Source: a virus (taxonomy: Duplodnaviria; Heunggongvirae; Uroviricota; Caudoviricetes). Taken from it: a DNA stretch of 38,728 nucleotides. The translations under genes and the position numbers were made by a program. The stretch's first letter is position 1. Each line of letters opens with the position of its first letter. The DNA lies in IMG/VR virus record IMGVR_UViG_648231705_000004. One strand, 5' to 3'. This document shows, one piece after another, positions 21,437-38,728 of the stretch. Under the pieces are notes generated by a model. That model was not told the DNA's origin. It saw only the letters and a program-made list of their open reading frames with translations, and did no database searches.

Positions 21437-21775
21437 ATGGGAACCACTCAGCAGGTCATTCTGATCACAACCGTAACGGCAGGGGCAGCACTGGCACAGC
21501 AGCGTTTTGTCGGGGCAGATAATACCCCCTGTAAAGCCGGTGCCGCAGCGCTCGGGGTTGCCGAAGTGGATGCTGTTACCGGCGACAGCACGCCGGTGAG
21601 CGTTCTGGGCATTATTGCTGTCGAGGCCGGGGCCGCTGTCAGCCGTGGTGTGGCTGTTCAGTCAGATGCTCAGGCCAGAGCCGTGCCGCAGTCCGGCGAC
21701 GGTAAATCCTGTGGTATTGCACTTGATGAAGCCGGGGGTGAAGGCGACGTCATTCGTATCCTGCGCGGGGTGTGA
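21437..21775 (+). CDS. small Gly/Ala/Val-rich head protein (112 aa, decoration/cement-like)
   Basis: AAGGAGG RBS; follows major capsid gene. Confidence 0.6.
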   Translation: MGTTQQVILITTVTAGAALAQQRFVGADNTPCKAGAAALGVAEVDAVTGDSTPVSVLGIIAVEAGAAVSRGVAVQSDAQARAVPQSGDGKSCGIALDEAGGEGDVIRILRGV

Positions 21776-21776
21776 C

Positions 21777-22223: not shown

Positions 22224-22687
22224 TGAACGTTCTGCCCGTCCTTGATGCGGTGCTGGCCCGGTTACGCGAGAAGCTGCCGCAACTGCAGGTGGAGTACTTC
22301 CCGGAGAAACCGGCTGAATATCGCCTGAACCATCCGGTTGGCGCGTTGCTGCTGAGCTATGCCGGTTCGCGCTTTGACAGGCCGGATGATACCGGTGCGG
22401 TGATCCAGTCTCAGACTATCCAGCTCTGCGTCACGGTGGTCTTCCGCCAGCTCAACGGTAAAAAAGGGGCGATTAATGTCCTGGATGCTGTCCGCCGCAT
22501 TCTCGGTGGCCACACCCCGCCCGGGTGCCGCTGCCGTATCTGGCTGACCCGCGAGGTGTTTATCGGTGAAGTCAGGGGGCTGTGGCAATACGCCCTCGAC
22601 TTCGCGACTGAAAGCATCTTTATCGAAGACAGCGATTTACCGTCCGGCCCGCTGTTAACCGAAGTGAACTATGAGGAAAGCGAGTGA
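22223..22687 (+). CDS. head/tail completion protein (Mu gp37-like)
   Basis: ATG overlaps upstream stop; 154 aa. Confidence 0.65.
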   Translation: MNVLPVLDAVLARLREKLPQLQVEYFPEKPAEYRLNHPVGALLLSYAGSRFDRPDDTGAVIQSQTIQLCVTVVFRQLNGKKGAINVLDAVRRILGGHTPPGCRCRIWLTREVFIGEVRGLWQYALDFATESIFIEDSDLPSGPLLTEVNYEESE

Positions 22688-22938
22688 TGAAAGAATACCG
22701 CTATTCCGGCCCGGCCAGCGGCGTCACGCTGTCGGACGGAACCGAAATCCTGCTCTGGCCGGGGAAGACGGTTTCCCTGCCGGAGGAGCATGACTACGTG
22801 AAGGTACTGGTGGCGCTGAAGCATCTGACGCCGGAACCAGAAGATACTAAACCCGCCGTCACACCGGCTGTGCAGTCACCAAAGCGCAGAAGCAGCAGTG
22901 ACAGCGAAGTGAAAACGGAGGACGCCCATGGCAGCTAA
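22687..22938 (+). CDS. small tail-completion protein (83 aa)
   Basis: ORF 22684..22938; ATG 22687 with GAGGA RBS; precedes sheath gene. Confidence 0.5.
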   Translation: MKEYRYSGPASGVTLSDGTEILLWPGKTVSLPEEHDYVKVLVALKHLTPEPEDTKPAVTPAVQSPKRRSSSDSEVKTEDAHGS

Positions 22939-24355
22939 CTATCTGCATGGTCCCGAAACCATTGAGGTGGAAAACGGAGCCCGCCCGGTTAAAACGGTGA
23001 AATCTGCCGTTATTGGCCTGATTGGTACCGCCCCGATGGGGGATGTCAATACGCTGGTACAGTGCCTGTCTGAGAAAGACGCAGCGGCATTTGGCAGCCA
23101 GTTCACCGGCTTTACCATTCCGCAGGCGCTGGATGCGATTTATGACCATGGTGCAGGCACCGTTCTGGTCATTAACGTCCTCGACCCGGCGAAACATAAA
23201 ACGGCGATCGAGGATGAGGTGGTTACCTTTGACAAATCGACAGGGCAGGCCAGACTGGCGCATCCGGTTGTCGCTAATGTGGTGGTGAAAAACAGTGAAG
23301 GCAGCACCACCCACACGGCGAACACGGACTACCGTGTTGATGCGCAGGCGGGTGTGCTCACGAACCTGGGCAAGGCTATTGAGGCCGGTGGCAGCGTGAA
23401 GGTGAGCTATGAGTACGCGGACCCGTCGAAGGTGACTGCGGCGGACATCATCGGCGGGGTGAACAGCGCCGGAAACCGAACCGGCATGAAGCTGCTTAAC
23501 GACAGCTTCAACCTGTACGGCTATTTCGCCAAAATTCTGATTGCGCCGGTGTTCTGCACCCAGAAGAGTGTCGCAGTTGAGCTTATCGCCATGGCAGAGA
23601 AGCTGGGCGCGATAACCTACATTGATGCGCCTGTCGGTACCACCTTTGCACAGGCTCTGGCAGGTCGTGGCCCGGAAGGCACCATCAACTTCAATACCAG
23701 CTCCGACCGCGTCCGTCTGTGCTATCCGCATGTGAAGGTATATGACCCGGTGACAAACACAGAGCGTCTGGAGCCGCTCAGCCAGCGTGCAGCAGGTCTG
23801 CGTGCCAGAGTCGATCTGGACAAGGGCTACTGGTGGTCATCCTCCAATCAGGAGATTCTGGGGATCACCGGCGTGGAGCGCCAGCTGTCCGCGATGATTG
23901 ATGACCCGCAGAGTGAGGTGAACCTGCTTAACGAACAGGGGATCACCACGGTATTCAGCAGTTACGGCAGCGGCCTTCGTCTGTGGGGTAACCGGACGGC
24001 AGCATGGCCAACGGTCACCCATATGCGTAACTTTGAGAACGTTCGCCGCACCGGTGATGTGATCAACGAGTCCATTCGTTATTTCAGCCAGCAGTACATC
24101 GACATGCCGATTACTCAGGCGCTGATTGATGCACTGACGGAGTCGGTCAACGCCTACGGTCGCAAAATGACTGGTGATGGTGCGGTACTGGGCTTCCGTT
24201 GCTGGTTTGATCCGGCCCGCAATCCGGAGACGGAGCTGGCCGCCGGGCACCTGTTGCTGAGCTACAAATATACGCCACCACCGCCGCTGGAGCGACTGAC
24301 GTTTGAGACTGAGATCACCTCGGAATACCTGTTAACCCTGAAAGGGGGCAACTGA
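22928..24355 (+). CDS. contractile tail sheath protein (Mu L-like)
   Basis: 475 aa; GGAGG RBS; sheath-tube-chaperone-tape measure order. Confidence 0.9.
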   Translation: MAANYLHGPETIEVENGARPVKTVKSAVIGLIGTAPMGDVNTLVQCLSEKDAAAFGSQFTGFTIPQALDAIYDHGAGTVLVINVLDPAKHKTAIEDEVVTFDKSTGQARLAHPVVANVVVKNSEGSTTHTANTDYRVDAQAGVLTNLGKAIEAGGSVKVSYEYADPSKVTAADIIGGVNSAGNRTGMKLLNDSFNLYGYFAKILIAPVFCTQKSVAVELIAMAEKLGAITYIDAPVGTTFAQALAGRGPEGTINFNTSSDRVRLCYPHVKVYDPVTNTERLEPLSQRAAGLRARVDLDKGYWWSSSNQEILGITGVERQLSAMIDDPQSEVNLLNEQGITTVFSSYGSGLRLWGNRTAAWPTVTHMRNFENVRRTGDVINESIRYFSQQYIDMPITQALIDALTESVNAYGRKMTGDGAVLGFRCWFDPARNPETELAAGHLLLSYKYTPPPPLERLTFETEITSEYLLTLKGGN

Positions 24356-24876
24356 TGTCAAAGATTGAGATAAACCGCATCACGAATGCCAACATCTATC
24401 TGGATGGTACTAACCTGCTGGGACGGGCTGAGGAAGTCAAACTCCCCGATGTCTCCATGATTATGCAGGAACACAAGGCGCTGGGGATGGTGGGTAAGGT
24501 GGAACTCCCGGCTGGTTTTGACAAGCTGGAAGGCGAAATCAAATGGAACAGCTTTTACCGCGATGCGATGCTGTCTGCCGCGAACCCGTACAGGTCGCTG
24601 GCACTGCAGTGTCGTTCCAGCGTCCAGCGCTACAGCTCGCAGGGGCTGATTGACGAAATCCCGCTGGTCACCTTCCTGACGATTATGTTCAAGAAGAACC
24701 CGCTGGGGACGTTCAAACAGCACGAGAACGCCGAGTTCTCCAGTAGCTTCACCTGCACGTATATCAGACAGGTACTGGATGGTGAAGAGCTGCTGCAACT
24801 GGACTATCTGGCCAACATCTTCCGGGTCGGCGGTGTTGATCAACTGACTGACTACCGTATCAATATCGGGGGCTGA
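24355..24876 (+). CDS. tail tube protein (Mu M-like)
   Basis: 173 aa; ATG overlaps sheath stop. Confidence 0.85.
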   Translation: MSKIEINRITNANIYLDGTNLLGRAEEVKLPDVSMIMQEHKALGMVGKVELPAGFDKLEGEIKWNSFYRDAMLSAANPYRSLALQCRSSVQRYSSQGLIDEIPLVTFLTIMFKKNPLGTFKQHENAEFSSSFTCTYIRQVLDGEELLQLDYLANIFRVGGVDQLTDYRINIGG

Positions 24877-24878
24877 CG

Positions 24879-25160
24879 GTGAGTGTTGAACTGACGGATA
24901 AAGGAGGACGATGTGCGGCACTGGGCATGTCAAATGGTACGTGGTTTACCCTCCTTGATATTCCGGGGGTGGAAACCCTTTTTAATACCCGTAAAACCAA
25001 TGACCCGATTGACTGCACACGTTCAAAGGCCCGCAAACTGGCGGATTTGATTGAAGCATGGGAGCCTCCCGACCACTGGTTCTCCGGCATCGGCAAATCT
25101 GAGGGAAAGACGCTTCTCATCGCTTTCCTGCGTAACTGCAAGGGGTTTCGCACTTGCTGA
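24879..25160 (+). CDS. hypothetical protein (93 aa; non-ATG start, possible internal ATG at 24927)
   Basis: ORF between tube gene and a terminator-like hairpin; no recognisable motif. Confidence 0.35.
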   Translation: MSVELTDKGGRCAALGMSNGTWFTLLDIPGVETLFNTRKTNDPIDCTRSKARKLADLIEAWEPPDHWFSGIGKSEGKTLLIAFLRNCKGFRTC

Positions 25161-25167
25161 CATCACA

Positions 25168-25190
25168 GGGGCTCCGGCCCCTTCTTCTTA
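25168..25190 (+). terminator. short GC hairpin + T-rich tract (weak terminator) preceding a probable internal late promoter
   Basis: GGGGC tccg GCCCC followed by TTCTTCTT; next gene starts at 25258 with its own RBS. Confidence 0.35.
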
Positions 25191-25257
25191 ATCTCCTTTA
25201 ATATCCGTCACGCGCTTCTCCCGACATACTGCCCTGAACTTACACAGGAGCACAATC

Positions 25258-25593
25258 ATGTCACAGACCCCATCCGATACTTTTAAATTGTCTTATCCCT
25301 TCACCACTGCTGCAGGCACCAGAATTGAGCTGGTTGAACTGAAACGCCTGACGGTAAAAGACCTGAAGCAGGTGCGCAAAATCAGCAAAAACCCGGCAGA
25401 CTGGGACGAACCGCTGATTGCCCGCAGTACTGGTCTTCTCCCGGAAGATCTCGACAATATGGATCTGGCTGATTACCTGCAGTTACAGAAACGATTTCAG
25501 CTCATCACGGGGATGGGTGAGAGCAACCAGGGCGCTGACGCAGGCGCAGGGGCTGCTGGCGAGATGGTTCCGGTTTCAGCCGGGGGAGATTGA
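25258..25593 (+). CDS. tail assembly chaperone (upstream frame of a probable frameshifted pair)
   Basis: 111 aa; AGGAG RBS; sits between tube and tape-measure genes; Gly/Ala-rich C-terminus ending in a G5 run before the stop. Confidence 0.65.
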   Translation: MSQTPSDTFKLSYPFTTAAGTRIELVELKRLTVKDLKQVRKISKNPADWDEPLIARSTGLLPEDLDNMDLADYLQLQKRFQLITGMGESNQGADAGAGAAGEMVPVSAGGD

Positions 25594-25675
25594 TGCCCTC
25601 GATACTGACGATCTGGAGATGTGGCTGGAGCAGGCTGAAGAGCAAATCAAAAGCGAGTACGGCGACAAATCATAG
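25418..25675 (+). CDS. +1-frame extension of tail assembly chaperone (probable frameshift product C-terminus)
   Basis: Frame-2 ORF overlapping end of 25258..25593; only its last ~30 codons (EIDALDTDDLEMWLEQAEEQIKSEYGDKS) look protein-like. Confidence 0.4.
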   Translation: MPAVLVFSRKISTIWIWLITCSYRNDFSSSRGWVRATRALTQAQGLLARWFRFQPGEIDALDTDDLEMWLEQAEEQIKSEYGDKS

Positions 25676-25750
25676 TACAGACAGCCGCCAGTAGCGGCTG
25701 TTCTGCGTTATCCCCTCACGTCTTTTCACCTTCCCCGGAGGTTAACCACT

Positions 25751-26158
25751 ATGTCGGGACAGTTTTCAGTCGGCGTTGTTATCGGCGGGATGATTGGCAG
25801 CACATTCCGTTCTGCAATGAGCGGTACCCGCCGTGCGCTTGATTCCCTGAGCGATACCTCACGCCGCCTGCAGGAACGTCAGAACGCTTTAACCCGTGCA
25901 ACAGAACGTTATGGTCAACTGGGTTCTTCCCGGATGCAGCATCTCAACAGCGAGCTGCTGCGGGTAAGCCGCACCATGGAGCAAATTGAGCGCCAGCAGC
26001 GCCGTCTGTCAGCGGCATCCGCTACCAGTGATGCGCTGAGAAAGCTAACCGCATGGCGCTGTATGGTCAGGGGATTGAAGCGTATGGCATGGCACAGACT
26101 GTTTATCATACGGTTTCCCCTGCCGTTCAGCAGTCCATGTCTTTTCAGGACAAAATGA
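25751..26158 (+). CDS. tail tape measure protein, N-terminal segment (frame differs from the main ORF)
   Basis: Strong RBS GGAGG before ATG 25751; typical TMP N-terminus; frame switches to that of 26053..28965 between ~26032 and 26060. Confidence 0.5.
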   Translation: MSGQFSVGVVIGGMIGSTFRSAMSGTRRALDSLSDTSRRLQERQNALTRATERYGQLGSSRMQHLNSELLRVSRTMEQIERQQRRLSAASATSDALRKLTAWRCMVRGLKRMAWHRLFIIRFPLPFSSPCLFRTK

Positions 26159-28965
26159 TTGATATGTCGATCACCGCAAAATATGACAATAAAACGCGGG
26201 ATGCACTTGCCGGACAGATAAAAGGCTGGGCGCTTAAATACAATCAGTATCAGGATGAGCTGCAGGAGGCGGTGGGTTCACTCATCAGCGACAATATTGA
26301 TAATGTGTCAGATATCGGTTTTCTGATGCCGGATATTGCCCGCGCGGCAACGGCAACACGCACGTCTGCTCAGGACTGGGCAAAAGTGGCCGCAGTCTGG
26401 CAAAACTCCCTGAAAGGTGCGGCCAGAGATTTTGGTGCCGTTCAGAATATTATGGCTTATGCCGGTGACCAGGGGTCATTTGAAATCCCGGATCAGGTCA
26501 AGTGGATGCAGTCCCTGGCCCCAATGATGGCGGGTCTTGCCAGTGGAAAAGAGGCTGTTGCTGAAATCGGGGCCAGTCTCCAGATAGCAAAAATCGGTGC
26601 AGGTTCCACCGACGAAGCAGCCAATAATTTTAAAAACTTTCTTACCAAAATTTTTGCCCGCGATACTCAGAAACAGTTTGCTGATCTGGGTATTGATTTG
26701 CAGGGATCTATTGCGAGTTATAAAGCTGCGGGGATCTCTCCGATTGAAGGGATGTTGAGTGTTATAGAACGTTACCTCAATGCCAAAAGCCCCGAAGCGC
26801 TGGCCGGCTTCAAATCAGCCATGAAAATAAAGAATGATACGGCAAGAGATGAGGCACTTCAGGCTCTGGCGAAAAACTTTGGTCTGGGCGATATGTTCGC
26901 GGATATGCAGGTCATGGCATTTATCCGCCCGATGCTGGCCAACATGGACAGATATCGAGAGATCCGTGCCGGTGCTCTCAGGGCTGCGGATAACGATTTG
27001 CTTGCCAGTGCTTATGATCAGCGGCTGAAATCTCCCCTTGAAGCCACTAAAACACTTATGGTCAGCAGTCGCGATCTGGCAATTACGCTGGGCGATCAAT
27101 TAGCTCCATCTTTTATTTCTCTGACTCAGGAACTGCTCCCACTCATTCAGGGGACAAAACACTGGGTAGCGACTCACCCGCAATTTGTCAGTGGGGCTTT
27201 TAAGCTCATCAGTGCGCTCCTTGCGATTAAGATAGCGACTATTGGTCTCAAACTGGGGCTGAATCTCCTTATTTCCCCCTTTGTGAACGTCTGGAAAACT
27301 ACTGTTTTACTCCGGACCAACTGGCATCGACTGACTACCGCACTCGGAGAAGGTGGCAAATTACGCTGGCTTGTCACTGGATTCAGCCGACTGACCAGCG
27401 GAGGACTGAAACTCAGCAAAGTTCTGGCGGGCAGCCTCGTTCGCGGTTTTATGAGCGCTGCACGTGCCGTTCTCTGGATTGGGCGAGCGCTGATGATGAA
27501 TCCCATCGGTCTCGTTATCACCGCTGTCGCGACAGCAGCTTACCTTATCTACCGCAACTGGGGGGCTGTCAGTGGTTGGTTTAAACAGCGCTGGGCTGAC
27601 ATTCAGGAAGCCTTTAACGGCGGCATTGTGGGAATTGGTAAGTTGCTGATTAACTGGTCGCCGGCAGGCCTGCTCTATAAAGCCTTTGCGGCTGCGCTGA
27701 AATATTTCGGCGTTGCTCTGCCGGCAAAGTTCACCGACTTCGGTGGCCATCTTATCGACGGTCTGATTAACGGTATCAAAAGCAAATGGGGGTCGCTCAA
27801 ATCCAGTGTAACCGGAATGGGTGACAGCATCAGTAGCTGGTTTAAACAGCGCTGGGCTGACATTCAGGAAGCCTTTAACGGCGGCATTGTGGGAATTGGT
27901 AAGTTGCTGATTAACTGGTCGCCGGCAGGCCTGCTCTATAAAGCCTTTGCGGCTGCGCTGAAATATTTCGGCGTTGCTCTGCCGGCAAAGTTCACCGACT
28001 TCGGTGGCCATCTTATCGACGGTCTGATTAACGGTATCAAAAACAAATGGGGGTCGCTCAAATCCAGTGTAACCGGAATGGGTGACAGCATCAGTAGCTG
28101 GTTTAAACAGTGCTGGGCTGACATTCAGGAAGCCTTTAACGGCGGTATCGCGGGAACTGGTAAGCTGCTGATTAACTGGTCGCCGGCAGGTCTGCTCTAT
28201 AAAGCCTTTGCAGCTGCGCTGAAATATCTTGGTGTTGATCTGCCGGCAAAGTTCACCGACTTCGGTGGCCATCTTGTCGACGGTCTGATTAACGGTATCA
28301 AAAACAAATGGGAGTCGCTCAAATCCAGTGTAACCGGAATGGGCGACAGCATCAGTGGCTGGTTCAGCGAAAAGCTGGGCATTCATTCGCCGAGCCGCGT
28401 GTTTATGGGCTTTGGTGACAATATCGCGCAGGGGGCCGCCATTGGCCTGCAGCGGACCACTCCGCTTGCAGCTCTGGCCGGGCAGCGAATGGCCAGTGAA
28501 CTGCTCCCCAGAATGCCCGTGAGCATTCAGGGGCCAGAAATACGGGATAACACTTCAGGTGTTCGCTTCAGTATGCCGTTGCCCGATATCAATGGGTTTA
28601 TGTCGTCTGCTAAAAATGCGATCGGAGCCGTAATCAATAGTTTGTCTTCCATGCCCGCTATCCCGCTCTCCACCCGGGCATCGATTTTACCAGGGCAACG
28701 TCTGGCAAATGAGATGACACCGGATGTTCCCCGTATCCCCTCGCCTGAAATCATGGCTGCCGGATATTCAGGCCGTGGTGCAGCTGCAACCGGCGGTGGA
28801 ACGTCTGGTGGTATCCAGGTCAGCTTTAATCCTCAGTTTTTCCTCAATGGCAGGGAAACCACAGCGCCTGCAGGACTGACTGGTGCCCTGAATATGAGTC
28901 TGCATGAGCTGGAAAAAATGCTGGAGCGTCTGCTGGCTCAGAAACAACGTAAGGAGTACCGCTGA
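26053..28965 (+). CDS. tail tape measure protein (main body, 970 aa)
   Basis: Long helix-rich ORF between chaperone and baseplate genes; contains three tandem 87-aa repeats. Confidence 0.85.
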   Translation: MALYGQGIEAYGMAQTVYHTVSPAVQQSMSFQDKMIDMSITAKYDNKTRDALAGQIKGWALKYNQYQDELQEAVGSLISDNIDNVSDIGFLMPDIARAATATRTSAQDWAKVAAVWQNSLKGAARDFGAVQNIMAYAGDQGSFEIPDQVKWMQSLAPMMAGLASGKEAVAEIGASLQIAKIGAGSTDEAANNFKNFLTKIFARDTQKQFADLGIDLQGSIASYKAAGISPIEGMLSVIERYLNAKSPEALAGFKSAMKIKNDTARDEALQALAKNFGLGDMFADMQVMAFIRPMLANMDRYREIRAGALRAADNDLLASAYDQRLKSPLEATKTLMVSSRDLAITLGDQLAPSFISLTQELLPLIQGTKHWVATHPQFVSGAFKLISALLAIKIATIGLKLGLNLLISPFVNVWKTTVLLRTNWHRLTTALGEGGKLRWLVTGFSRLTSGGLKLSKVLAGSLVRGFMSAARAVLWIGRALMMNPIGLVITAVATAAYLIYRNWGAVSGWFKQRWADIQEAFNGGIVGIGKLLINWSPAGLLYKAFAAALKYFGVALPAKFTDFGGHLIDGLINGIKSKWGSLKSSVTGMGDSISSWFKQRWADIQEAFNGGIVGIGKLLINWSPAGLLYKAFAAALKYFGVALPAKFTDFGGHLIDGLINGIKNKWGSLKSSVTGMGDSISSWFKQCWADIQEAFNGGIAGTGKLLINWSPAGLLYKAFAAALKYLGVDLPAKFTDFGGHLVDGLINGIKNKWESLKSSVTGMGDSISGWFSEKLGIHSPSRVFMGFGDNIAQGAAIGLQRTTPLAALAGQRMASELLPRMPVSIQGPEIRDNTSGVRFSMPLPDINGFMSSAKNAIGAVINSLSSMPAIPLSTRASILPGQRLANEMTPDVPRIPSPEIMAAGYSGRGAAATGGGTSGGIQVSFNPQFFLNGRETTAPAGLTGALNMSLHELEKMLERLLAQKQRKEYR
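27577..28359. repeat. 3 x 261-bp near-identical in-frame tandem repeats inside tape measure gene
   Basis: Unit begins TGGTTTAAACAGCGCTGGGCTGACATTCAGGAAGCC at 27577, 27838 and 28099; encodes SWFKQRWADIQEAFNGGIVGIGKLLINWSPAGLLYKAFAAALKYFGVALPAKFTDFGGHLIDGLINGIK... Confidence 0.9.
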
Positions 28966-29849
28966 TGTTTGCCGTACTGGGTGATATTGAGTTTGAGCTG
29001 ATTACCTACTGGGACGGCTTCGAGGCCACGTTCGGCGTCGATTATGCGGAGCATGCCCGCATCGGGGGTAAGCCTGGCCTGCAGTTCGTCGGCGACAGGC
29101 TGGACGAAATCCAGATAACTCTGGTTTTCCATCAGCATTATTGTGTACCCGATGTGGAGCTGGCGAGACTGCGAACAGCCATGAAAGCCCATCAGGCACT
29201 GGCGCTGGTCTTCGGCAACGGTGACTATCGCGGCTGGTTCGTGATTACCGATGTGACTGCAACCAGCGAGCAGACTGACAATACCGGCAACGTGCTGGCT
29301 GTCAGTGCCACCGTGTCTCTCCGGGAATACACCGGTGACCCGAAAAATCCTCTGCAACCACCGGCAATACGCACGAAGCTCCCGGGTGTCGGGGCGGTCT
29401 CCGGTGCCATTCCTTCGCCTTCAGGGGTGGCGCAGTTCATCCGCAACGGCGTCAACTATGCGAAACAGGCGCAGTCTGTACTCCAGACCACTATCAGCGC
29501 CGTTCGGGTGACACAGAAAATGAAGGATAACCCCGTTGTCGCACTGACCCGTGTGCCGGGGCTGATGAGCGGACTGGGTAATATCTCCGGGGCTCTGGGG
29601 AAAAGTGTTCCGGCGTTTAACGCACTCTCTGAATCCATGCCCGATGCCATCAGTCTGGCCAGAACAGCCAGCGAAGCAGCCACGTATGTACAGCAGGCAC
29701 AGTCTGCGCTGAGTGGTGTGGACAAAAGAAATATTGCAGGTGCTCTGGATACCGTTTCCGGGCAGCTTAACGCCGCCGGCACAGCATTCAACCGCATGTC
29801 TCCGGGATTAAGTGCAATGGCCGCCAGAATACTGACGAGGAGTGTGTGA
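28965..29849 (+). CDS. tail protein following tape measure (Mu N position; N-terminus resembles P2 gpU-type tail proteins)
   Basis: 294 aa; ATG overlaps TMP stop; position between TMP and gpX/gpD-like genes. Confidence 0.7.
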   Translation: MFAVLGDIEFELITYWDGFEATFGVDYAEHARIGGKPGLQFVGDRLDEIQITLVFHQHYCVPDVELARLRTAMKAHQALALVFGNGDYRGWFVITDVTATSEQTDNTGNVLAVSATVSLREYTGDPKNPLQPPAIRTKLPGVGAVSGAIPSPSGVAQFIRNGVNYAKQAQSVLQTTISAVRVTQKMKDNPVVALTRVPGLMSGLGNISGALGKSVPAFNALSESMPDAISLARTASEAATYVQQAQSALSGVDKRNIAGALDTVSGQLNAAGTAFNRMSPGLSAMAARILTRSV

Positions 29850-30061
29850 TGTTTCTTGAACATATTACCCGTGACGGAGAGCGCTGGGATTCGCTGGCAT
29901 GGCAGTACTACGGTGACCCGCTGGGCTATCCCCGGATTATTGCAGCCAATCCGCACGTGGCCATCACGCCGGTGCTGCCCTCCGGGTTGTTGTTACTGAT
30001 CCCGGTGATTGAGGCTGAAGATGCCCGTACAGAAGAGGATATTGCCCCATGGCTGAGATAA
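29849..30061 (+). CDS. tail protein X (P2 gpX-like)
   Basis: ORF 29846..30061; ~70 aa with GD..WD...YYGDP...ANP...LP.G pattern; GAGGAG RBS. Confidence 0.7.
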   Translation: MFLEHITRDGERWDSLAWQYYGDPLGYPRIIAANPHVAITPVLPSGLLLLIPVIEAEDARTEEDIAPWLR

Positions 30062-31203
30062 ACAGTACTGCGCAAGCCACATCAGCGTTAACCGGCGTCA
30101 GCGATGTGCTGACGCCGGTATTCACTCTGTGGTATCTGCAGAAAAACATCACCTCTGATATCGCGCCTTATGTCACCCGTGTGACCTGGAGCGATAACAT
30201 CAAAAATGAGTCCGATACCATTGAGGTGGAGCTGGACGACACCGATGGCCGCTGGCTGGATAAGTGGTATCCGGGCAAGGGTGACACGCTGACGCTGAAA
30301 ATGGGTTATCAGGGCGAGAAACTGCTGTCCTGCGGTACATTCTCAATAGACGAGATCGAAGTGAGTTCGCCCGCGTCCGTTGTCGCTATCCGTGGGGTGG
30401 CCACCTCGGTTAACAGTGCTCTGCGGACTAAATCCAGCCGTGGTTTTGAGAACACCACGCTGGCAGCTGTTGCGGGGCGGATTGCCAGAAAGCACCGGCT
30501 GAAACTGGTGGGCAGCATTGAGTCCATCAGAATCGACCGGGTGACCCAGTATGCTGAAACCGACGTGGGTTTTCTGCGCCGGCTGGCCAGCGAGTATGGT
30601 TATGCAGTGAAAGTGGTCAGTGACCAGCTGATTTTTTCTCATCTGGCCACACTGCGCAGTCAGGAGCCGGTCAGGCAGTTAAAACCGCAGGATGTGGCCC
30701 GCTTTTCCCTGCGTGACACCATCAACCGGGTCTATAAATCTGCAAAGGTAAAACACCAGAAAAGCAGCAGTAAAAAACTGATCGTCTACGAAGCTGATGG
30801 TGGTACCCGTGAAAGCGACAAAAAGCTCAAAGGTGGTAAGGTTACCAGCGCTGACTCACTTAAAGTTAACAGCCGCGTCAGCGACCCGGACAGTGCCCGG
30901 ATTAAAGCGGATTCAGCACTGGCCAGACATAACGAATACCAGCAGAACGGCTCCCTGACGCTGACGGGAACACCTCAACTGACAGCAGGCAACAAAATTG
31001 AACTGGTGGGTTTTGGGCAGTTATCCGGGCCATGGCTCATAACCACTGCCCGCCATGCGTTTGACCGTAACAGCGGCTACACCACAGAGCTGGAAGTGGC
31101 ACGGGGGCCAGTCACAAGAGGGAAAAAACAAAAAACTCAGAAACTCACGGTTTATCACCCGGATGGCAGTACATCGACGGTGATTAAGGAGAAGAAAAAA
31201 TGA
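30049..31203 (+). CDS. tail/baseplate protein, P2 gpD / Mu P-like
   Basis: 384 aa; motif IEVELDDTDG and ...FLRRLASEYGY... as in gpD-family proteins. Confidence 0.85.
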   Translation: MAEINSTAQATSALTGVSDVLTPVFTLWYLQKNITSDIAPYVTRVTWSDNIKNESDTIEVELDDTDGRWLDKWYPGKGDTLTLKMGYQGEKLLSCGTFSIDEIEVSSPASVVAIRGVATSVNSALRTKSSRGFENTTLAAVAGRIARKHRLKLVGSIESIRIDRVTQYAETDVGFLRRLASEYGYAVKVVSDQLIFSHLATLRSQEPVRQLKPQDVARFSLRDTINRVYKSAKVKHQKSSSKKLIVYEADGGTRESDKKLKGGKVTSADSLKVNSRVSDPDSARIKADSALARHNEYQQNGSLTLTGTPQLTAGNKIELVGFGQLSGPWLITTARHAFDRNSGYTTELEVARGPVTRGKKQKTQKLTVYHPDGSTSTVIKEKKK

Positions 31204-31796
31204 CTGGTGTCACTCGTCAGGTCGGTACGGTCAGTGCCGTTGATGCCGACAGGGTTCAGGCCCGCGTTCGTCTGCCTGAATGCGATAACCTGCGCACAAA
31301 CTGGCTTAACGTGCTGCAGCGCAATACCCAGGATAACAAAGATTACTGGCTCCCTGACGTGGGGGAGCAGGTTGAGGTGCTGCTCGATGCCAACGGCGAG
31401 GATGGTGTTATTCTGGGCGCGGTGTATTCAGACGTCGATAAACCACCGTTCAGTGACAAAAATATCCGGGGAACCCGGTTTGCTGATGGTGCAGAGTACA
31501 GCTACAACCGGAAGACGCACACTCTGATCATCCGGGGCGGCATTGAGCATATTGTCATTGAGTGTGGTGCTGATGTGGTATTGAAAACACAGAAAGCCAC
31601 GATTGACGCACCGGAAACCGAACTTACCGGAGATCTGCGTGTCAGGGGTAAACTGATTTACGAAGGAGGCATGGCGGGTTCTGGTGGTGAAGGTGTTACC
31701 GCGACCATCCATGGCAATATCGAGATTAAAGGGAATGCCCATGCCACGGGCAGTATGTTGTCTGATGGCGAAAACTCCAGCCACCACTCCCACTGA
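31200..31796 (+). CDS. baseplate spike/assembly protein (P2 gpV / Mu Q-like)
   Basis: 198 aa; N-terminal VGTVSAVDADRVQARVRL; ATGA overlap with upstream gene. Confidence 0.8.
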   Translation: MTGVTRQVGTVSAVDADRVQARVRLPECDNLRTNWLNVLQRNTQDNKDYWLPDVGEQVEVLLDANGEDGVILGAVYSDVDKPPFSDKNIRGTRFADGAEYSYNRKTHTLIIRGGIEHIVIECGADVVLKTQKATIDAPETELTGDLRVRGKLIYEGGMAGSGGEGVTATIHGNIEIKGNAHATGSMLSDGENSSHHSH

Positions 31797-31850
31797 GCTT
31801 TTTAAACGCCTTTAATATCAGCGTTCCCGCACGGGGGCAATACTGCCCCC

Positions 31851-32198
31851 ATGAAAACAACCTCAGTATTCTGGCAACCAGCCCTGCAGGCTCCCGGCGA
31901 AATTGTCCGGGGGCTGGATGATATCCGGCAGGCGATTCAAATTATCCTGCGGACTCCCCGCGGCAGCGACCCGCATCGCCCGGAGTTCGGCAGCAATCTG
32001 CATCTTTATATCGACTGGCCTGTAGACCGGGCCATTCCGCATGTGGTGCGCGAATCCGTCGATGCCATCCGGCGCTGGGAGCCCCGCTGCCAGCTTATGT
32101 CAGTTAAACCCGCCGTCGACGGCGAACATCTTACGCTCCGGGTGAGCTGGAAAGGCTCAGACGGACAGACCCGGACTCAGGAGCTGCTATGGCGCTGA
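31851..32198 (+). CDS. baseplate wedge protein (gpW/gp25-like)
   Basis: 115 aa; segment IRQAIQIILRTPRGSDPHRPEFGSNL typical of GPW/gp25 family. Confidence 0.8.
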   Translation: MKTTSVFWQPALQAPGEIVRGLDDIRQAIQIILRTPRGSDPHRPEFGSNLHLYIDWPVDRAIPHVVRESVDAIRRWEPRCQLMSVKPAVDGEHLTLRVSWKGSDGQTRTQELLWR

Positions 32199-33292
32199 CA
32201 GAACCCGATTTTATTGAACGCGATGCCGACAAAATCACGGCAGAAATGATTGCGAAGTATGAAGCGGATACCGGCAAAACGCTGTACCCGGCACAGGCAG
32301 AACGTCTGCTGATTGATCTGTGGGCCTATCGCGAAATGCTGGTCAGGGTTGCGGTACAGGAGGCAGCAAAGCAGAATCTGGTCGCCTTTGCCCGTGAGCC
32401 GATGATTGATTACCTCGGTGAACTGGTTGGTGTATACCGTCTTGCCGCGCAGCCTGCCACCACCACGCTCCAGTTCTCCGTAGATGAGGCACTGGCCATT
32501 GATGTGCTGATCCCGGCAGGCACCCGCGTCAGCGCTTCCGACAGCGTTATTTTTGCCACCGATACAGATGTGGTACTGAAGGCCGGATTGCTGCTGGTCA
32601 ATGTCACGTCCACCTGTACCGAACCCGGTACCGCTGGTAACGGCTGGCAACCTGCGCAGGTCAGTCAGTTACTCGATGAGATTGATAACGTCGACCTGCT
32701 GGTGAGCAATCTGACGGCCAGTTCCGGCGGTTCAGAACAGGAAGACGATGACAGGCTCCGGGAGCGTATCAGGCTGGCCCCGGAGTCATTCACCAATGCC
32801 GGAAGCCGTGGCGCATACCGCTTTCATGCCATGCAGGCCCATCCCAACATTGTCGATGTTGCTGTGCTTTCCCCGGTTCCCGGGACCGTAGATCTGTATC
32901 CGCTGCTCAGTACCGGTCTGCCGGACGGCGGTGTTCTCACGCTGGTAGAGAGTTTCTGCTCTGATGAGAAAGTCAGGCCACTCACTGATACAGTGCGGGC
33001 TAAAACACCAGTGAAGGTGGATTACACCATTGAAGCCAGGATTACGATCTATCGTGATCAGGATGCCAGGTCTGTAAAAGATGCCGCTAACAGCGCCATA
33101 CAGAACTGGGTGGCATCACGTGCCGCCACGCTGGGGCGCGATATTGTCCCCAGCCAGATTATCAGTGCATTGTCCGTTTCCGGGGTGTACCAGGTTGAAC
33201 TGGTGACACCGGCACTGCGGGTGGTGGCAGAAAACGAATGGGCAAACTGTACGGCAATCACTCTTAACATGACTGGAGTGTCTGATGACTGA
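32189..33292 (+). CDS. baseplate J-like protein (Mu W / P2 gpJ-like)
   Basis: 367 aa; position after gpW-like gene; overlapping start/stop. Confidence 0.85.
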   Translation: MALTEPDFIERDADKITAEMIAKYEADTGKTLYPAQAERLLIDLWAYREMLVRVAVQEAAKQNLVAFAREPMIDYLGELVGVYRLAAQPATTTLQFSVDEALAIDVLIPAGTRVSASDSVIFATDTDVVLKAGLLLVNVTSTCTEPGTAGNGWQPAQVSQLLDEIDNVDLLVSNLTASSGGSEQEDDDRLRERIRLAPESFTNAGSRGAYRFHAMQAHPNIVDVAVLSPVPGTVDLYPLLSTGLPDGGVLTLVESFCSDEKVRPLTDTVRAKTPVKVDYTIEARITIYRDQDARSVKDAANSAIQNWVASRAATLGRDIVPSQIISALSVSGVYQVELVTPALRVVAENEWANCTAITLNMTGVSDD

Positions 33293-33863
33293 GCCATTAC
33301 AACTCCCGCCACCGCTTGAGGGTGATATCAGTCTCAGGACGCTGGGAAGACTGGCAGGACGGCTGGATAACATCGACCTGAGCGTACTGATGGTCTTTCT
33401 CGTCGATATCGTCGACAGTTCCGCGCTGCCATGGCTGGGCGAGCAGTTCTCACTGTCTGGCGATGGCTGGGAGCTGGCGGAATCGGACGATGTTCGCCGC
33501 ATGCTTATAAAAGCAGCCATCGAACTGCACCGGTATAAAGGGACGCCGTGGTCAATCCGGGAAGTTATCCGCCGTTTTGGCTTTGGTGAAGTGGATCTGA
33601 TTGAAGGCACAGGTCGTCTCAGTTACGACGGCAATCGCAGCTATAACGGACTGTTTGTTCATGGAGATGCAGCCGCCTGGGCAGTTTATCGCGTTATTCT
33701 GAAACAGCCCATTACTAACGATCAGGCCGCGATGCTGCGTCAGACGCTGGCTGCATTTGCACCGGCCCGCTGCCATCTGGCCAGCCTGGAGTATCAGTCT
33801 GTGGCCATTCGCTATAACAATACAGCCATCCATGATGGCAGTTATAACCACGGGAGCAGTTGA
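33285..33863 (+). CDS. baseplate/tail protein I-like (Mu R / P2 gpI-like)
   Basis: 192 aa; directly upstream of tail-fibre gene. Confidence 0.8.
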   Translation: MTEPLQLPPPLEGDISLRTLGRLAGRLDNIDLSVLMVFLVDIVDSSALPWLGEQFSLSGDGWELAESDDVRRMLIKAAIELHRYKGTPWSIREVIRRFGFGEVDLIEGTGRLSYDGNRSYNGLFVHGDAAAWAVYRVILKQPITNDQAAMLRQTLAAFAPARCHLASLEYQSVAIRYNNTAIHDGSYNHGSS

Positions 33864-33865
33864 TT

Positions 33866-35701
33866 ATGGGAAACCTGAATGAAACAGAAAAGTGGGAAGA
33901 AAATATCTATCAACTGGAGACATCAGATCCGGTTCTGGGTGGTGCAGACGGGATATCAAATCGAGCCCCCCGGCAACTGGCAAACAGGACGAAATGGCTG
34001 AAGAAAAAAACGGAGGAAGCCGCACAGTCACTGGCTGAACACGTACGTTCCCGTAACCACCCGGACGCGACACTGACAGCTAAGGGGTTCACCCAACTGA
34101 GCAGTGCCACCAACAGCACCTCTGAAACGCTGGCCGCCACACCAAAAGCCGTCAAGGCTGCATACGACCTTGCAGCCGGCAAGGCGCCCGTCAGCCACAC
34201 TCACCCGTGGAGTCAGATAACGGGAGTGCCTGCTGCCTCGCTGACGGCAAAAGGCACCGTACAACTGAGCAGTGCCATCAACAGCACGTCTGAAATACTG
34301 GCCGCCACACCGAAGGCGGTCAAGGCTGCATACGACCTTGCAGCCGGCAAGGCGCCCGTCAGCCACACTCACCCGTGGAGTCAGATAACGGGAGTGCCTG
34401 CTGCCTCGCTGACGGCAAAAGGCACCGTACAACTGAGCAGCGCCATCAACAGCACGTCTGAAACGCTGGCCGCCACACCGAAAGCGGTCAAGGCTGCATA
34501 CGACCTGGCAGCCGGCAAGGCGCCTGCCAGCCACACTCACCCGTGGAGTCAGATAACGGGAGTGCCTGCGGCTTCACTGACGGCAAAAGGCACCGTACAA
34601 CTGAGCAGCGCCACGGACAGTCAATCAGAAACTGAGGCTGCCACGCCGAAGGCGGTCAAGGCTGCATACGACCTTGCAGCCGGCAAGGCGCCCGTCAGCC
34701 ACACTCACCCGTGGAGTCAGATAACGGGAGTGCCTGCTGCCTCGCTGACGGCAAAAGGCACCGTACAACTGAGCAGTGCCATCAACAGCACGTCTGAAAT
34801 ACTGGCCGCCACACCGAAAGCGGTCAAGGCTGCATACGATCTGGCAGCCGGCAAGGCGCCCGTCAGCCACACTCACCCGTGGAGTCAGATAACGGGAGTG
34901 CCTGCTGCCTCGCTGACGGCAAAAGGCACCGTACAACTGAGCAGTGCCATCAACAGCACGTCTGAAATACTGGCCGCCACACCGAAAGCGGTCAAGGCTG
35001 CATACGATCTGGCAAACGGAAAACAACCGGCAGATGCCACGCTCACTGCTCTGGCAGGACTTGCCACTGCAGCAGATCGGTTGCCTTATTTTACCGGAGC
35101 AGACCGCGCAGCGCTGGCAACCCTTACAGCTATTGGTCGCGCTATTATCGCTAAGGGCAGTATAAAAGATGTCCTCAATTACCTTGGTTTGGGGGAAGGC
35201 TCTGCATTGCCTGTTGGTGTACCGGTTCCGTGGCCCACCGCCACACCGCCAGAAGGCTGGTTAAAGTGCGACGGGCGCGCCTTTACAAAAGAACAATATC
35301 CTGTTCTGGCCAGAGCCTACCCGACCCTCCGTCTTCCCGATTTACGCGGTGAGTTTATCCGTGGATGGGACGACGGGCGCAAAGTTGATACAGGACGTAA
35401 GTTGCTGTCCGCACAAGGGGCAACGCTGTTAAGAACAGCAATGCTGGATTATTATAACCAGGACACTACGGGAACCTCGGGGATAGTCGGCATGGGATTC
35501 AACAATGAAGATTCCATTACAGACCTTCGTGAGGGCAGCTTTAAAATGCCGGACGGGACAACATTCAGCGATCCTGTCATAGCAATGTCAGACAATGGTA
35601 TGCAGGCTACTATTCTGACCTCTATCAGAAGCGGGTATGCGAAGGGTATCACTGTCAGACCCCGTAGCATTGCACTTAATTACATTGTGAGGGCAGTTTA
35701 A
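33866..35701 (+). CDS. tail fibre protein (constant part + currently attached variable C-terminus)
   Basis: ORF 33860..35701 (ATG 33866, GGGAG RBS); six tandem 56-aa repeats with ...SSAINSTSE..AATPKAVKAAYDLA... fibre-repeat signature; the inverted-repeat crossover lies inside the gene at ~35185. Confidence 0.85.
   Translation: MGNLNETEKWEENIYQLETSDPVLGGADGISNRAPRQLANRTKWLKKKTEEAAQSLAEHVRSRNHPDATLTAKGFTQLSSATNSTSETLAATPKAVKAAYDLAAGKAPVSHTHPWSQITGVPAASLTAKGTVQLSSAINSTSEILAATPKAVKAAYDLAAGKAPVSHTHPWSQITGVPAASLTAKGTVQLSSAINSTSETLAATPKAVKAAYDLAAGKAPASHTHPWSQITGVPAASLTAKGTVQLSSATDSQSETEAATPKAVKAAYDLAAGKAPVSHTHPWSQITGVPAASLTAKGTVQLSSAINSTSEILAATPKAVKAAYDLAAGKAPVSHTHPWSQITGVPAASLTAKGTVQLSSAINSTSEILAATPKAVKAAYDLANGKQPADATLTALAGLATAADRLPYFTGADRAALATLTAIGRAIIAKGSIKDVLNYLGLGEGSALPVGVPVPWPTATPPEGWLKCDGRAFTKEQYPVLARAYPTLRLPDLRGEFIRGWDDGRKVDTGRKLLSAQGATLLRTAMLDYYNQDTTGTSGIVGMGFNNEDSITDLREGSFKMPDGTTFSDPVIAMSDNGMQATILTSIRSGYAKGITVRPRSIALNYIVRAV
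34073..35040. repeat. 6 x 168-bp in-frame tandem repeats in tail-fibre gene
   Basis: CTGACGGCAAAAGGCACCGTACAACTGAGC recurs at 34241, 34409, 34577, 34745 and 34913, with a degenerate first copy at 34073. Confidence 0.85.
35172..35197. promoter_or_regulatory. candidate left recombination (gix/pix-like) crossover site
   Basis: TCCTCAATTACC TT GGTTTGGGGGAA: 12-2-12 layout; inner half-site resembles the Gin/Hin-family half-site TTATCCAAAACC (as reverse complement). Confidence 0.45.
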
Positions 35702-36315
35702 TGAGTAACACTGCAGTTCTGGATGAAAACGGTATCGCCACTGTAGCGGGCGATATCACTGTATATCACTATGACGAGGAAACCCGGGAATACACCTCAT
35801 CCTCTGTGGAGTATCTCGCCCTTGGGGTGGGTACTCCGGCACATTCGTGCGCCGATGCACCGCCGGAGGCAATTTCGGGTTACGTGGTTTGCCGGACTGC
35901 CACGCTGAACGGGTGGGAGCATGTGCCTGATCACCGCGGCGAGACGGTATACAGCACGGAGAACGGTAACCCCGTTCTGATTACCCAACCGGGTGATTAC
36001 CCGGCGGACACCACCACAAAACAGCCAGCCACGCCATGGGATACCTGGAACGGTGAGGCGTGGGTAACCGATACTGAACGGCAGCGAACCGCAGAACTGG
36101 AGGTTGCCAGACAGCAACGCCAGCAACGGGTGAAACAGGCGATGGCGTCCGTCGATCTTATCAACCTCAAACTGCGTGCTGGTCGCAGTCTGACACCAGA
36201 AGAAACGGCAAAACTGAACGCCGTGCTGGATTATATCGACGAGCTGAACGCACTGGATATCAGCACGGCACCTGAAATCAGCTGGCCGGAAGCACCACTG
36301 GCACTTGCCAGTTGA
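35701..36315 (+). CDS. tail fibre assembly protein (chaperone)
   Basis: 204 aa; ATG overlaps fibre stop (TAATG); inside invertible segment. Confidence 0.8.
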   Translation: MSNTAVLDENGIATVAGDITVYHYDEETREYTSSSVEYLALGVGTPAHSCADAPPEAISGYVVCRTATLNGWEHVPDHRGETVYSTENGNPVLITQPGDYPADTTTKQPATPWDTWNGEAWVTDTERQRTAELEVARQQRQQRVKQAMASVDLINLKLRAGRSLTPEETAKLNAVLDYIDELNALDISTAPEISWPEAPLALAS

Positions 36316-36321
36316 ACGGTA

Positions 36322-36783
36322 TCACGCCGCCCTCACGATATAGTTAAATGCGATATTGCGGGGGCGAGCTGATACATAAGCCCACCAGTCATATCTTTGT
36401 GCACCTTTAGAGGATGCATCAAATATCCACTTTTTGCCATTTATGACCCCCAGTTGATTAGAGGTTAAAGCGTCACCAAATCCGTATTGTGTAGAGCCGA
36501 GCGAACTGATATCTCCGGTATTATTATCATCAAAACCGGATACGATAGTCCCTTCCTGAAATGAAAGTACCGTACGCCCGGTATCAACCTTGCGACCACC
36601 GTCCCATCCACGGATAAACTCACCGCGCAAATCGGGAAGACGGAGGGTCGGGTAGACTCTGGCCAGAACAGGATATTGTTCTTTGGTGAACGTAGCTCCG
36701 TTGCACTGTAACCAGCCTGCTGGCGGTGTGGCGGTGGGCCATGGAACCGGTACACCAACAGGCAATGCAGAGCCTTCCCCCAA
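36322..36783 (-). CDS. alternative tail-fibre C-terminal variable segment (promoterless; expressed only after inversion)
   Basis: N-terminal ~60 aa nearly identical to residues ~449-510 of the plus-strand fibre (GEGSALPVGVPVPWPTATPP...LRLPDLRGEFIRGWD); both variants end in NYIVRA. Confidence 0.65.
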   Translation of the reverse strand: MGEGSALPVGVPVPWPTATPPAGWLQCNGATFTKEQYPVLARVYPTLRLPDLRGEFIRGWDGGRKVDTGRTVLSFQEGTIVSGFDDNNTGDISSLGSTQYGFGDALTSNQLGVINGKKWIFDASSKGAQRYDWWAYVSARPRNIAFNYIVRAA

Positions 36784-36788
36784 ACCAA
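36573..36788. repeat. right inverted repeat of invertible segment (pairs with 35185..35400)
   Basis: Reverse complement aligns with 35185..35400 at roughly 88% identity by eye. Confidence 0.75.
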
Positions 36789-36800
36789 CGTTTATCTCTC
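36775..36800. promoter_or_regulatory. candidate right recombination (gix/pix-like) crossover site
   Basis: TTCCCCCAAACC AA CGTTTATCTCTC: inner half identical to the left site in inverted orientation; coordinates +/- 2 bp. Confidence 0.45.
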
Positions 36801-36854
36801 AAATCCTCCCCACATTATCTCAGTACTTTAACCACTCAAAAGGGAGTATTTTTA

Positions 36855-37427
36855 ATGCTGATTGGCTACATACGTGTGTCAACAAATGACCAAAACACAG
36901 ATTTGCAACGCAATGCATTAATGTGCGCAGGATGTGAACAGATTTTTGAGGACAAAATGAGCGGAACCAAGTCGGAACGACCAGGCCTGAAACGCGCTTT
37001 AAAGTGCCTTAAAAGAGGGGATACATTGGTGGTCTGGAAGCTGGATCGGTTGGGTAGAAGAATGAAACACCTCATTGCTCTCACAGAAGAGCTACGCGCA
37101 AAAGGTGTCAATTTTCGCAGTCTGACGGATTCAATCGATACCAGCACTCCGATGGGAAGGTTCTTTTTTCATATGATGGGTGCACTGGCAGAAATGGAGC
37201 GTGAACTGATAGTTGAGCGCACGCTGGCAGGACTGGCTGCTGCGCGAGCACAAGGGAGAGTTGGAGGACGTCGCCCGAAACTGACGAAGGAGCAGCATGA
37301 GCAGATCGCAAGATTGCTCCAGAAAGGGTATGACAGAAAGCGGCTGGCAATTATCTATGATATTGGACTGTCAACGATCTACCGCTACCACCCTGTTGGG
37401 ACTGTCATAACGCAACCTGAAATGTAA
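36855..37427 (+). CDS. serine-recombinase DNA invertase (Gin/Pin/Hin/Cin family)
   Basis: N-terminus MLIGYIRVSTNDQNTDLQRNAL with catalytic Ser; C-terminal HTH; ATG is codon 44 of ORF 36726..37427. Confidence 0.9.
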   Translation: MLIGYIRVSTNDQNTDLQRNALMCAGCEQIFEDKMSGTKSERPGLKRALKCLKRGDTLVVWKLDRLGRRMKHLIALTEELRAKGVNFRSLTDSIDTSTPMGRFFFHMMGALAEMERELIVERTLAGLAAARAQGRVGGRRPKLTKEQHEQIARLLQKGYDRKRLAIIYDIGLSTIYRYHPVGTVITQPEM

Positions 37428-37454
37428 TTCTTTTTCAAATAATGAAACGCCGCG

Positions 37455-37508
37455 TGGATGCCATTTATCGCACAAGATAGAGTGCATTTATCGCGCGGCG
37501 CATCAACA
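37455..37508. repeat. candidate transposase-binding terminal repeats at prophage right end
   Basis: Two direct copies of CATTTATCGC (about 37462 and 37486) just before the phage/host junction. Confidence 0.35.
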
Positions 37509-37549
37509 AATTTACCGCCGAACGCGCAGGCAAACAGTCGCTGGATGAT

Positions 37550-38728
37550 TTGATGAACAGTTCGCTGTATCTGATGCGCAGCGAATTGCGTGAGATCCCC
37601 CCACACGACTGGGGTAAGACGCTGAAAGAGATGGATTTAAATCTCTCTTTCGATCTGCGTGTCGAGCCACTGAGTAAATACCATCTTGATGATATTTCCA
37701 TGCACCGGCTGCGTGGCGGCGAAATTGTCGCTCTGGACGATCAGTACACTTTTTTGCAACGTATCCCGCGCAGCCACTACGTGCTGGCAGTTGGTCCTGT
37801 TCCTTATCTTTATTACCTCCATCAGATGCGATTGCTGGATATCGCCCTGATCGCTTTTATTGCCATTTCCCTCGCCTTTCCGGTGTTTATCTGGATGCGT
37901 CCGCACTGGCAGGATATGTTAAAACTGGAAGCAGCGGCGCAACGATTTGGCGATGGGCATCTCAGTGAGCGTATCCACTTTGATGAAGGTTCGAGCTTTG
38001 AACGACTTGGCGTCGCATTTAACCAGATGGCGGACAATATCAACGCCTTGATTGCCAGCAAAAAACAGCTTATTGACGGTATCGCTCACGAACTGCGAAC
38101 ACCGTTAGTGCGCCTGCGTTATCGACTGGAGATGAGCGATAACCTGAGCGCCGCCGAATCCCAGGCGTTGAATCGCGATATCAGTCAACTTGAAGCTTTA
38201 ATCGAAGAGCTGCTGACTTATGCCCGACTCGACCGCCCACAAAATGAGCTTCATCTTAGCGAACCAGACCTGCCGTTGTGGCTGTCAACGCATCTGGCAG
38301 ATATTCAGGCAGTAACGCCCGATAAAACGGTACGGATAAAAACGCTCGCGCAAGGCCATTATGCGGCGTTGGATATGCGCTTAATGGAGCGCGTGCTGGA
38401 TAATTTGCTCAATAACGCCCTGCGCTACTGTCACTCAACGGTTGAAACCAGCCTGCTACTGTCGGGGAATAGAGCGACATTAATTGTTGAGGATGATGGC
38501 CCAGGGATTGCCCCAGAAAACCGCGAACATATCTTTGAACCTTTTGTTCGCCTCGATCCCAGCCGGGATCGCTCAACCGGCGGCTGCGGGCTGGGGCTGG
38601 CAATTGTCCACTCTATAGCACTGGCAATGGGCGGTACGGTTAATTGTGACACCAGCGAACTGGGTGGTGCCCGCTTCTCGTTCAGCTGGCCGTTATGGCA
38701 TAACATCCCGCAATTTACCTCTGCCTGA
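37550..38728 (+). CDS. rstB: sensor histidine kinase RstB, 5'-truncated fragment (gene interrupted by the prophage)
   Basis: From memory, matches E. coli RstB from about residue 30 onward (KFTAERAGKQSLDDLMNSSLYLMRSELREIPPHDWGK...); HisKA box HELRTPL and ATP-binding G-box GGCGLGLAIV present; no RstB N-terminus upstream. Host-derived sequence starts at ~37508. Confidence 0.9.
   Translation: MMNSSLYLMRSELREIPPHDWGKTLKEMDLNLSFDLRVEPLSKYHLDDISMHRLRGGEIVALDDQYTFLQRIPRSHYVLAVGPVPYLYYLHQMRLLDIALIAFIAISLAFPVFIWMRPHWQDMLKLEAAAQRFGDGHLSERIHFDEGSSFERLGVAFNQMADNINALIASKKQLIDGIAHELRTPLVRLRYRLEMSDNLSAAESQALNRDISQLEALIEELLTYARLDRPQNELHLSEPDLPLWLSTHLADIQAVTPDKTVRIKTLAQGHYAALDMRLMERVLDNLLNNALRYCHSTVETSLLLSGNRATLIVEDDGPGIAPENREHIFEPFVRLDPSRDRSTGGCGLGLAIVHSIALAMGGTVNCDTSELGGARFSFSWPLWHNIPQFTSA

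Follow-up and report, generated by a model that had tools for sequence, protein, structure and literature searches.

A BcepMu-like transposable temperate phage of 37,701 bp was, as we conclude with high confidence, inserted by DDE transposition into codons 27 to 29 of rstB in the lineage of Escherichia coli 83972. The window, by which we mean the whole stretch of 38,728 nucleotides that was analyzed, contains this prophage except for its leftmost 196 bp, which lie beyond window position 1, and continues across the right phage end into the 3' part of rstB. The prophage is flanked by a target-site duplication of 6 bp, and the response regulator gene rstA is intact.

The insertion as such is already known. 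E. coli 83972 is the prototype strain of asymptomatic bacteriuria and has been used for deliberate bladder colonization, and its inactivated genes are therefore of practical interest. Zdziarski et al. (2010, PLoS Pathog 6:e1001078; PMC2928814), who also discussed RstAB in bladder colonization, reported a "Prophage 4, inserted into rstB" in E. coli ABU 83972, which is the same object without any biological difference, and both rstB pieces are pseudogenes in RefSeq, the 3' piece with the label "missing N-terminus". As the event has been on record since 2010, our finding re-derives it. The consulted text of PMC2928814 gives the insertion without stating the exact base at which phage and host DNA meet, the length of the duplication (6 bp), the repeats at the termini, or the affiliation with BcepMu. 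These details, which leave the biology unchanged, are added here together with the BcepMu-type machinery and the finding that about 11% of complete E. coli genomes carry this phage family. A literature search for a link between 83972 and a "Mu-like" phage gave no match.

Results

The features of the prophage and its right flank are compiled in Table 1.

Table 1. Positions of the prophage, its right end, and the rstB remnant in the window.
Feature	Position	Strand	Remarks
Prophage body	1..37505		Ends located, RefSeq annotation; left copy of the target-site duplication, rstB codons 1-28, and rstA outside the window
AAA+ transposition protein, ExeA-like, functional counterpart of MuB	4542..5708	-	Pfam AAA_22; 59% to BcepMu gp08
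Transposase, 589 aa, rve core, BcepMu gp09/Tn552 type	5719..7488	-	Pfam, tblastn
Invertible tail-fibre segment	35184..36788		46-bp perfect inverted repeats 35184-35229 and 36743-36788
Serine DNA invertase (Gin/Hin/Cin type), 190 aa	36855..37427	+	Pfam Resolvase 8e-51 and HTH_7
Right terminus of the prophage (attR-like)	37428..37505		Ends ...GCATCA, terminal CA 37504-37505
Terminal repeat 2 (GCGATAAAT)	37463..37471	-	35 nt from phage end; putative transposase-binding site
Terminal repeat 1 (GCGATAAAT)	37486..37494	-	12 nt from phage end; putative transposase-binding site
Target-site duplication, right copy ACAAAT	37506..37511		Both junctions compared with intact CFT073 rstB
rstB 3' remnant	37506..38728	+	2 nt of codon 27, codons 28-433, stop

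When window positions 37300-38728 were compared with 5,426 complete E. coli genomes using megablast, identity with host rstB set in at query base 207, which is window position 37506. The rstB part on its own (query bases 207-1429) was matched by 5,416 of the 5,426 genomes, and the 206 phage bases together with rstB were matched by E. coli 83972 only, among the 25 matches listed; its record NZ_CP058220.1 is 100% identical over all 1,429 bases. The junction was placed by eye in an alignment with the intact rstB of CFT073, which reads ...ggtgtACAAATttaccgcc... across the insertion point. At the right junction, ...GCGCGGCGCATCA with the last phage base 37505 is directly followed by ACAAATttaccgcc with the first host base 37506. 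The left junction, which lies just outside the window and was taken from the RefSeq record, reads ...ggtgtACAAAT on the host side, followed by TGATCAGACATGAGATAAATG of the phage. Joined to each other, the two flanks give exactly the intact rstB, with ACAAAT occurring twice. The first whole rstB codon after the prophage is K28 (AAA, 37508-37510), and the KFTAERAGKQSLDDLMNSS-encoding frame extends in the window to the rstB stop codon at 38728, as seen in the sequence and the list of open reading frames.

The window represents the minus strand of the 83972 chromosome, and window position x corresponds to position 2449443 - x of the record. The gene order in RefSeq is fumC, tus, the rstB pseudogene, a recombinase family protein, about 55 phage genes, an 84-nt pseudogene fragment, and rstA. 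The latter fragment is the 5' end of rstB, annotated as a "histidine kinase" pseudogene, and it is located with rstA on the far side of the prophage; in CFT073, rstA, rstB, and tus are contiguous. An earlier reading of the window from its sequence only had placed the right prophage end inside rstB, with the gene resuming at about position 37508 and residue 30, and with rstA and the first 29 or so codons of rstB beyond the prophage. This placement holds and was right within two residues, the number of separated codons being 28 (27 2/3 before the duplicated hexamer). Upstream of 37508 there is neither an rstB start codon nor native N-terminal coding sequence. The rstB frame is closed there by a TAG at 37478-37480, and the DNA upstream of the junction is phage DNA, consisting of the invertase gene and the phage terminus.

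Such an abrupt junction might in principle stem from phage and host reads that were chimerically joined during assembly, and the abruptness is the only feature that speaks for this. However, the right junction is identical base for base in two independent 83972 assemblies, which are the window and the complete genome NZ_CP058220.1, and the latter also contains the reciprocal left junction. Both junctions share the 6-bp duplication and rebuild intact rstB exactly, and the insertion had been reported independently in 2010. The probability of an assembly artefact is therefore negligible, and we rejected it.

The two ends of the prophage match each other and those of BcepMu. Read from the outside inwards, each of the two ends begins with TGAT, resulting in termini of the form TGAT...ATCA. 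In reverse complement, the right end starts with TGATGCGCCGCGCGATAAATG..., which has the same register as TGATCAGACATGAGATAAATG... of the left end and as the two termini of BcepMu. The 78 bp between the invertase gene and the phage end contain two copies of CATTTATCGC. The strict motif GNGATAAAT is present at positions 12 and 35 of both prophage ends and nowhere else in the 38.7-kb window, and the looser motif GNGATA(A/T)(A/T)T occupies these two positions at either end of the 83972 prophage, of two further E. coli prophages, and of BcepMu. As the repeats have the same register at both ends, also in BcepMu, and the strict motif is absent elsewhere in the window, the "short repeats" that the sequence-only reading had correctly seen behind the invertase gene are subterminal repeats of a transposable element. 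They are predicted to bind the transposase.

The left copy of the ACAAAT duplication directly precedes the left phage end. For comparison, we fetched four further insertions of the same phage family. Three of them lie within genes, namely a glycerol-3-phosphate antiterminator gene, ssnA, and a sodium symporter gene, and the fourth is located in sufB or next to it. Exact direct repeats of 6 bp were found outside the TGA...TCA termini in all five independent insertions, with no repeat reaching 7 bp, and the TG...CA symmetry of the termini was likewise present in five of five cases. The five duplications, ACAAAT, GCTATC, TTTCTG, GCAAGG, and TGATGG, differ at each insertion. Phage Mu generates a target duplication of 5 bp, and this length had been assumed for the rstB insertion as well. 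As five of five insertions have exact 6-bp repeats, the stagger is 6 bp and not 5, and the alignment of both flanks with intact rstB, by which the 5-bp duplication was to be found, thus defined the junction to the base but did not confirm the assumed length. Text searches of PMC6776037, PMC3680342, PMC2628397, and PMC5977238 returned no passage with a figure for the duplication length of BcepMu, and the 6-bp figure therefore rests on the five junction pairs of the present analysis.

The right end of the phage is present in 596 of the 5,426 complete E. coli genomes (about 11%), at up to three places per genome, and 14 of the places are on plasmids. It is often located within a gene, examples being sufB, ssnA, idi, an EAL-domain gene, and tail genes that belong to other prophages. 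The occurrence in 596 genomes and in many different interrupted genes is the signature of near-random transposition, in line with the almost random insertion that had been proposed, and the phage family is a common insertional mutagen in natural E. coli.

The gene next to the junction encodes an invertase that serves a tail-fibre inversion switch and not prophage integration. The protein is 76% identical to Gin of Mu (tblastn). Gin-type crossover sites of 26 bp, which we read from the sequence and compared with the boundary of the Mu G segment, are found at about 35172-35197 and 36775-36800 and span the outer edges of the inverted repeats. The window and NZ_CP058220.1 are identical in all bases, and their only difference is an inversion of 35230-36742. 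As two sequenced 83972 cultures thus differ in the orientation of the switch, the invertase is, or recently was, active in the lysogen.

Some further aspects of the tail-fibre region may be noted. The alternative C-termini of the tail fibre result in proteins of 613 aa in the window and 594 aa in the RefSeq orientation. The segment, with open reading frames at 35701-36315 on the plus strand and 36322-36783 on the minus strand, contains a single tail-fibre assembly gene. In the window, this gene has the same orientation as the fibre gene; in the flipped RefSeq orientation, no co-oriented assembly gene follows the alternative fibre C-terminus. Three related prophages have different gene sets inside the invertible segment. 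Within the tail-fibre gene, positions 34094-35014 consist of 5.5 tandem copies of a 168-bp unit (92% matches) that encode repeated blocks of 56 aa (...TAKGTVQLSSAINSTSE.LAATPKAVKAAYDLAAGKAPVSHTHPWSQITGVPAASL...), and the fibre length varies among related prophages.

As the invertase gene is annotated as a recombinase family protein and ends only 78 bp from the junction, one could regard it as an integrase and rstB as the attachment site of a site-specific integration. This is extremely improbable, since the protein belongs to the small serine invertases of Gin/Hin type, whose tail-fibre segment is inverted between the two 83972 assemblies, and since the phage end is found in many genes elsewhere, including sufB, ssnA, idi, and the sodium symporter gene. 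Moreover, 6-bp duplications that differ at each insertion are a typical feature of transposition rather than of att recombination. No unrelated strain with an insertion at the same rstB position was found among the matches listed. Site-specific integration was rejected because of the invertase type, the many target genes, and the differing duplications.

The transposition proteins are those of a BcepMu-type phage. The only Pfam domain of the transposase is rve, and Mu-specific domains are absent. In tblastn searches, the transposase was 98.8% identical to that of PhiKM, 68% to that of BcepMu (over 98% of the protein), and 57% to transposase A of Pseudomonas phage B3; Mu was absent among the 69 phage records that matched the transposase, and neither the transposase nor the B protein matched Mu at E<=1e-5. 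The gene of the AAA+ protein adjoins the transposase gene on the same strand. The late activator has a Pfam Mor domain. Of the 54 annotated prophage proteins, 36 match BcepMu with order and strands kept, and this collinearity includes the genes for lysis, the head, and the P2-like tail. Matches to Mu were obtained with nine of the 54, namely Gin (76%), Gam (61%), TerL, portal, F, G, gp16, Mor, and a short tail-fibre stretch. The early operon runs towards the left end, on the strand opposite to that of the late genes, as in BcepMu and B3 and unlike Mu. A layout with an inverted early operon has been described for B3-like and BcepMu-like phages in the consulted text of PMC5977238, along with different transposition proteins for B3-type phages, and TG...CA termini with an rve/Tn552-related transposase are characteristic of BcepMu-type prophages according to that of PMC2628397.

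The prophage had been called Mu-type. This term is appropriate in that the phage is transposable and inserts near-randomly, but it does not apply to the transposition machinery, which is of the BcepMu/Tn552 type with an rve transposase and an AAA+ protein without any match to MuA or MuB, and with an inverted early operon. A reading as Mu itself (Muvirus), inserted with the 5-bp duplication that is usual for Mu, would account for the Gin-like invertase with a G-segment-like switch at the right end and for the similarities of Gam, Mor, gp16, and some head proteins. We nevertheless regard it as very improbable, and rejected it, because the transposase, with rve only, and the B protein have no Mu match, because the early operon is directed towards the left end, because com and mom are absent, as only 78 bp follow the invertase gene, and because all five insertions have a 6-bp duplication.

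The genome is a mosaic, in which Gam (61%; 3712-4242, minus strand) and the invertase (76%; 36855-37427, plus strand) are Mu-like modules, whereas it otherwise resembles BcepMu. A Dam-type DNA adenine methylase (9519-10283, minus strand) and several small open reading frames between repressor and holin have no counterpart in BcepMu or Mu. The same is true for two open reading frames at the extreme left end, outside the Mor gene (1-162, plus strand, and 166-798, minus strand). Their products have 53 aa, without a Pfam match, and 210 aa, hydrophobic by the look of the sequence. The two may be cargo genes; related prophages have other genes at this position.

The rstB remnant encodes residues 28-433 with 100% identity to RstB of CFT073, and all three Pfam domains HAMP, HisKA, and HATPase_c are present. 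It covers the periplasmic segment, the second transmembrane segment (TM2), and these domains, but has neither a start codon nor the first transmembrane segment (TM1). According to hydropathy, TM1 is within residues 1-27 and TM2 at about residues 131-160, and the break is after K28. A contiguous open reading frame with start and TM1 directly 3' of rstA, as expected for an intact gene, is not present. The 5' piece now reads MKKLFIQFYLLLFVCFLVMSLLVGLVYK, then LIRHEINEGGSVR and a stop, and thus encodes a 41-aa peptide that consists of TM1 and 13 phage-derived residues. rstA is intact, with the same protein accession as in CFT073. As the prophage splits the gene, a normal membrane sensor RstB cannot be made. 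No observation spoke against this arrangement of the locus. The complete identity of the remnant and the restriction of the junction to 83972 among the matches listed indicate that the insertion is recent.

Discussion

In the mechanism that we propose on the basis of the phage family, the transposase would bind the pair of repeats near each phage end and join the 3' ends, which terminate in ...CA, to the target at positions staggered by 6 bp, and the ACAAAT duplication would arise when this stagger is repaired. The resulting order is rstA, rstB codons 1-28, prophage, rstB codons 28-433, and tus, and the 3' piece lacks a start codon, TM1, and a ribosome-binding context of its own. The normal membrane form of RstB is thereby lost with the rstA gene staying intact, and RstB signalling is probably lost as well.

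This has consequences for the RstAB system. It is reasonable to regard the RstB sensor as probably inactivated, and a loss of RstB sensing and signalling is likely. The sequence-only reading had gone further and considered an inactivation of RstAB as a pair probable, which is too strong a statement, since rstA is intact. RstA could still receive phosphate from other donors, as is the case with two-component systems in general.

It is also conceivable that signalling was rewired rather than abolished, if read-through from the invertase gene allowed expression of the remnant as a truncated kinase that acts on RstA. The earliest possible starts in the remnant are a TTG at 37550 and an ATG at 37553, which correspond to L42 and M43, and translation from there could yield a product that lacks TM1 but retains the whole HAMP/HisKA/HATPase core. 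Such a scenario would be compatible with the intact rstA, with the mutation-free remnant and its intact HAMP, HisKA, and HATPase_c domains, and with the fact that a scan of 36700-37800 detected no terminator-like structure between the invertase stop codon and the remnant. However, the same scan detected no promoter-like site between the invertase gene and the remnant, no Shine-Dalgarno sequence is evident by eye before 37550 or 37553, and the missing TM1 would be expected to disturb the membrane topology. The perfect conservation of the remnant is equally well explained by a recent insertion. We therefore regard a rewired signalling as unlikely. The more specific idea that a read-through product from L42 or M43 is a signal-blind, TM1-less kinase/phosphatase that acts on RstA, rewires the PhoQP-RstBA branch, and aids the commensal-like behavior in the bladder appears quite doubtful. 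If it were true, the outputs of this branch would be affected, which are acid, curli, and anaerobic-respiration genes. We thus favor the simple loss of the membrane sensor RstB by insertion of a BcepMu-like phage.

With respect to named phages, PhiKM (PQ738613), from uropathogenic E. coli, is highly similar in sequence where compared, with a transposase identity of 98.8% and a late region that is 98.6% identical over 81% of the 25-kb query. Its deposited genome is shorter (34.7 kb). The identity indicates that a close relative of the 83972 prophage type has been deposited in GenBank as a phage; a literature search for a PhiKM publication gave no result.

Mu (Muvirus; NC_000929) is likewise a temperate myovirus that transposes into almost any site and thereby disrupts genes. 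The 83972 prophage has in common with it Gin (76%) and, next to the right end, a tail-fibre switch of the G-segment type, and matches are also obtained for Gam (61%), Mor, gp16, and some of the head proteins. In contrast to Mu, it has no homologues of MuA and MuB and no com/mom, and its early region is inverted, whereas the Mu order c/ner-A-B...mor-C-lys-head-tail is directed rightwards throughout, with gin-com-mom at the right end. The measured duplication is 6 bp, in comparison to the 5 bp of Mu.

The likeness to BcepMu (Bcepmuvirus; NC_005882) concerns the overall layout with the early operon towards the left end, the rve/Tn552-type transposase (68%) with its ExeA-like AAA+ partner (59%), the 36 of 54 collinear proteins, and the TGA...TCA termini with GNGATA(A/T)(A/T)T at positions 12 and 35 of each end. 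BcepMu differs in that it has an acyltransferase at its right end and lacks the invertase, the invertible tail-fibre segment, the Mu-like Gam, and the Dam methylase, and its host is Burkholderia, whereas the phage described here resides in E. coli.
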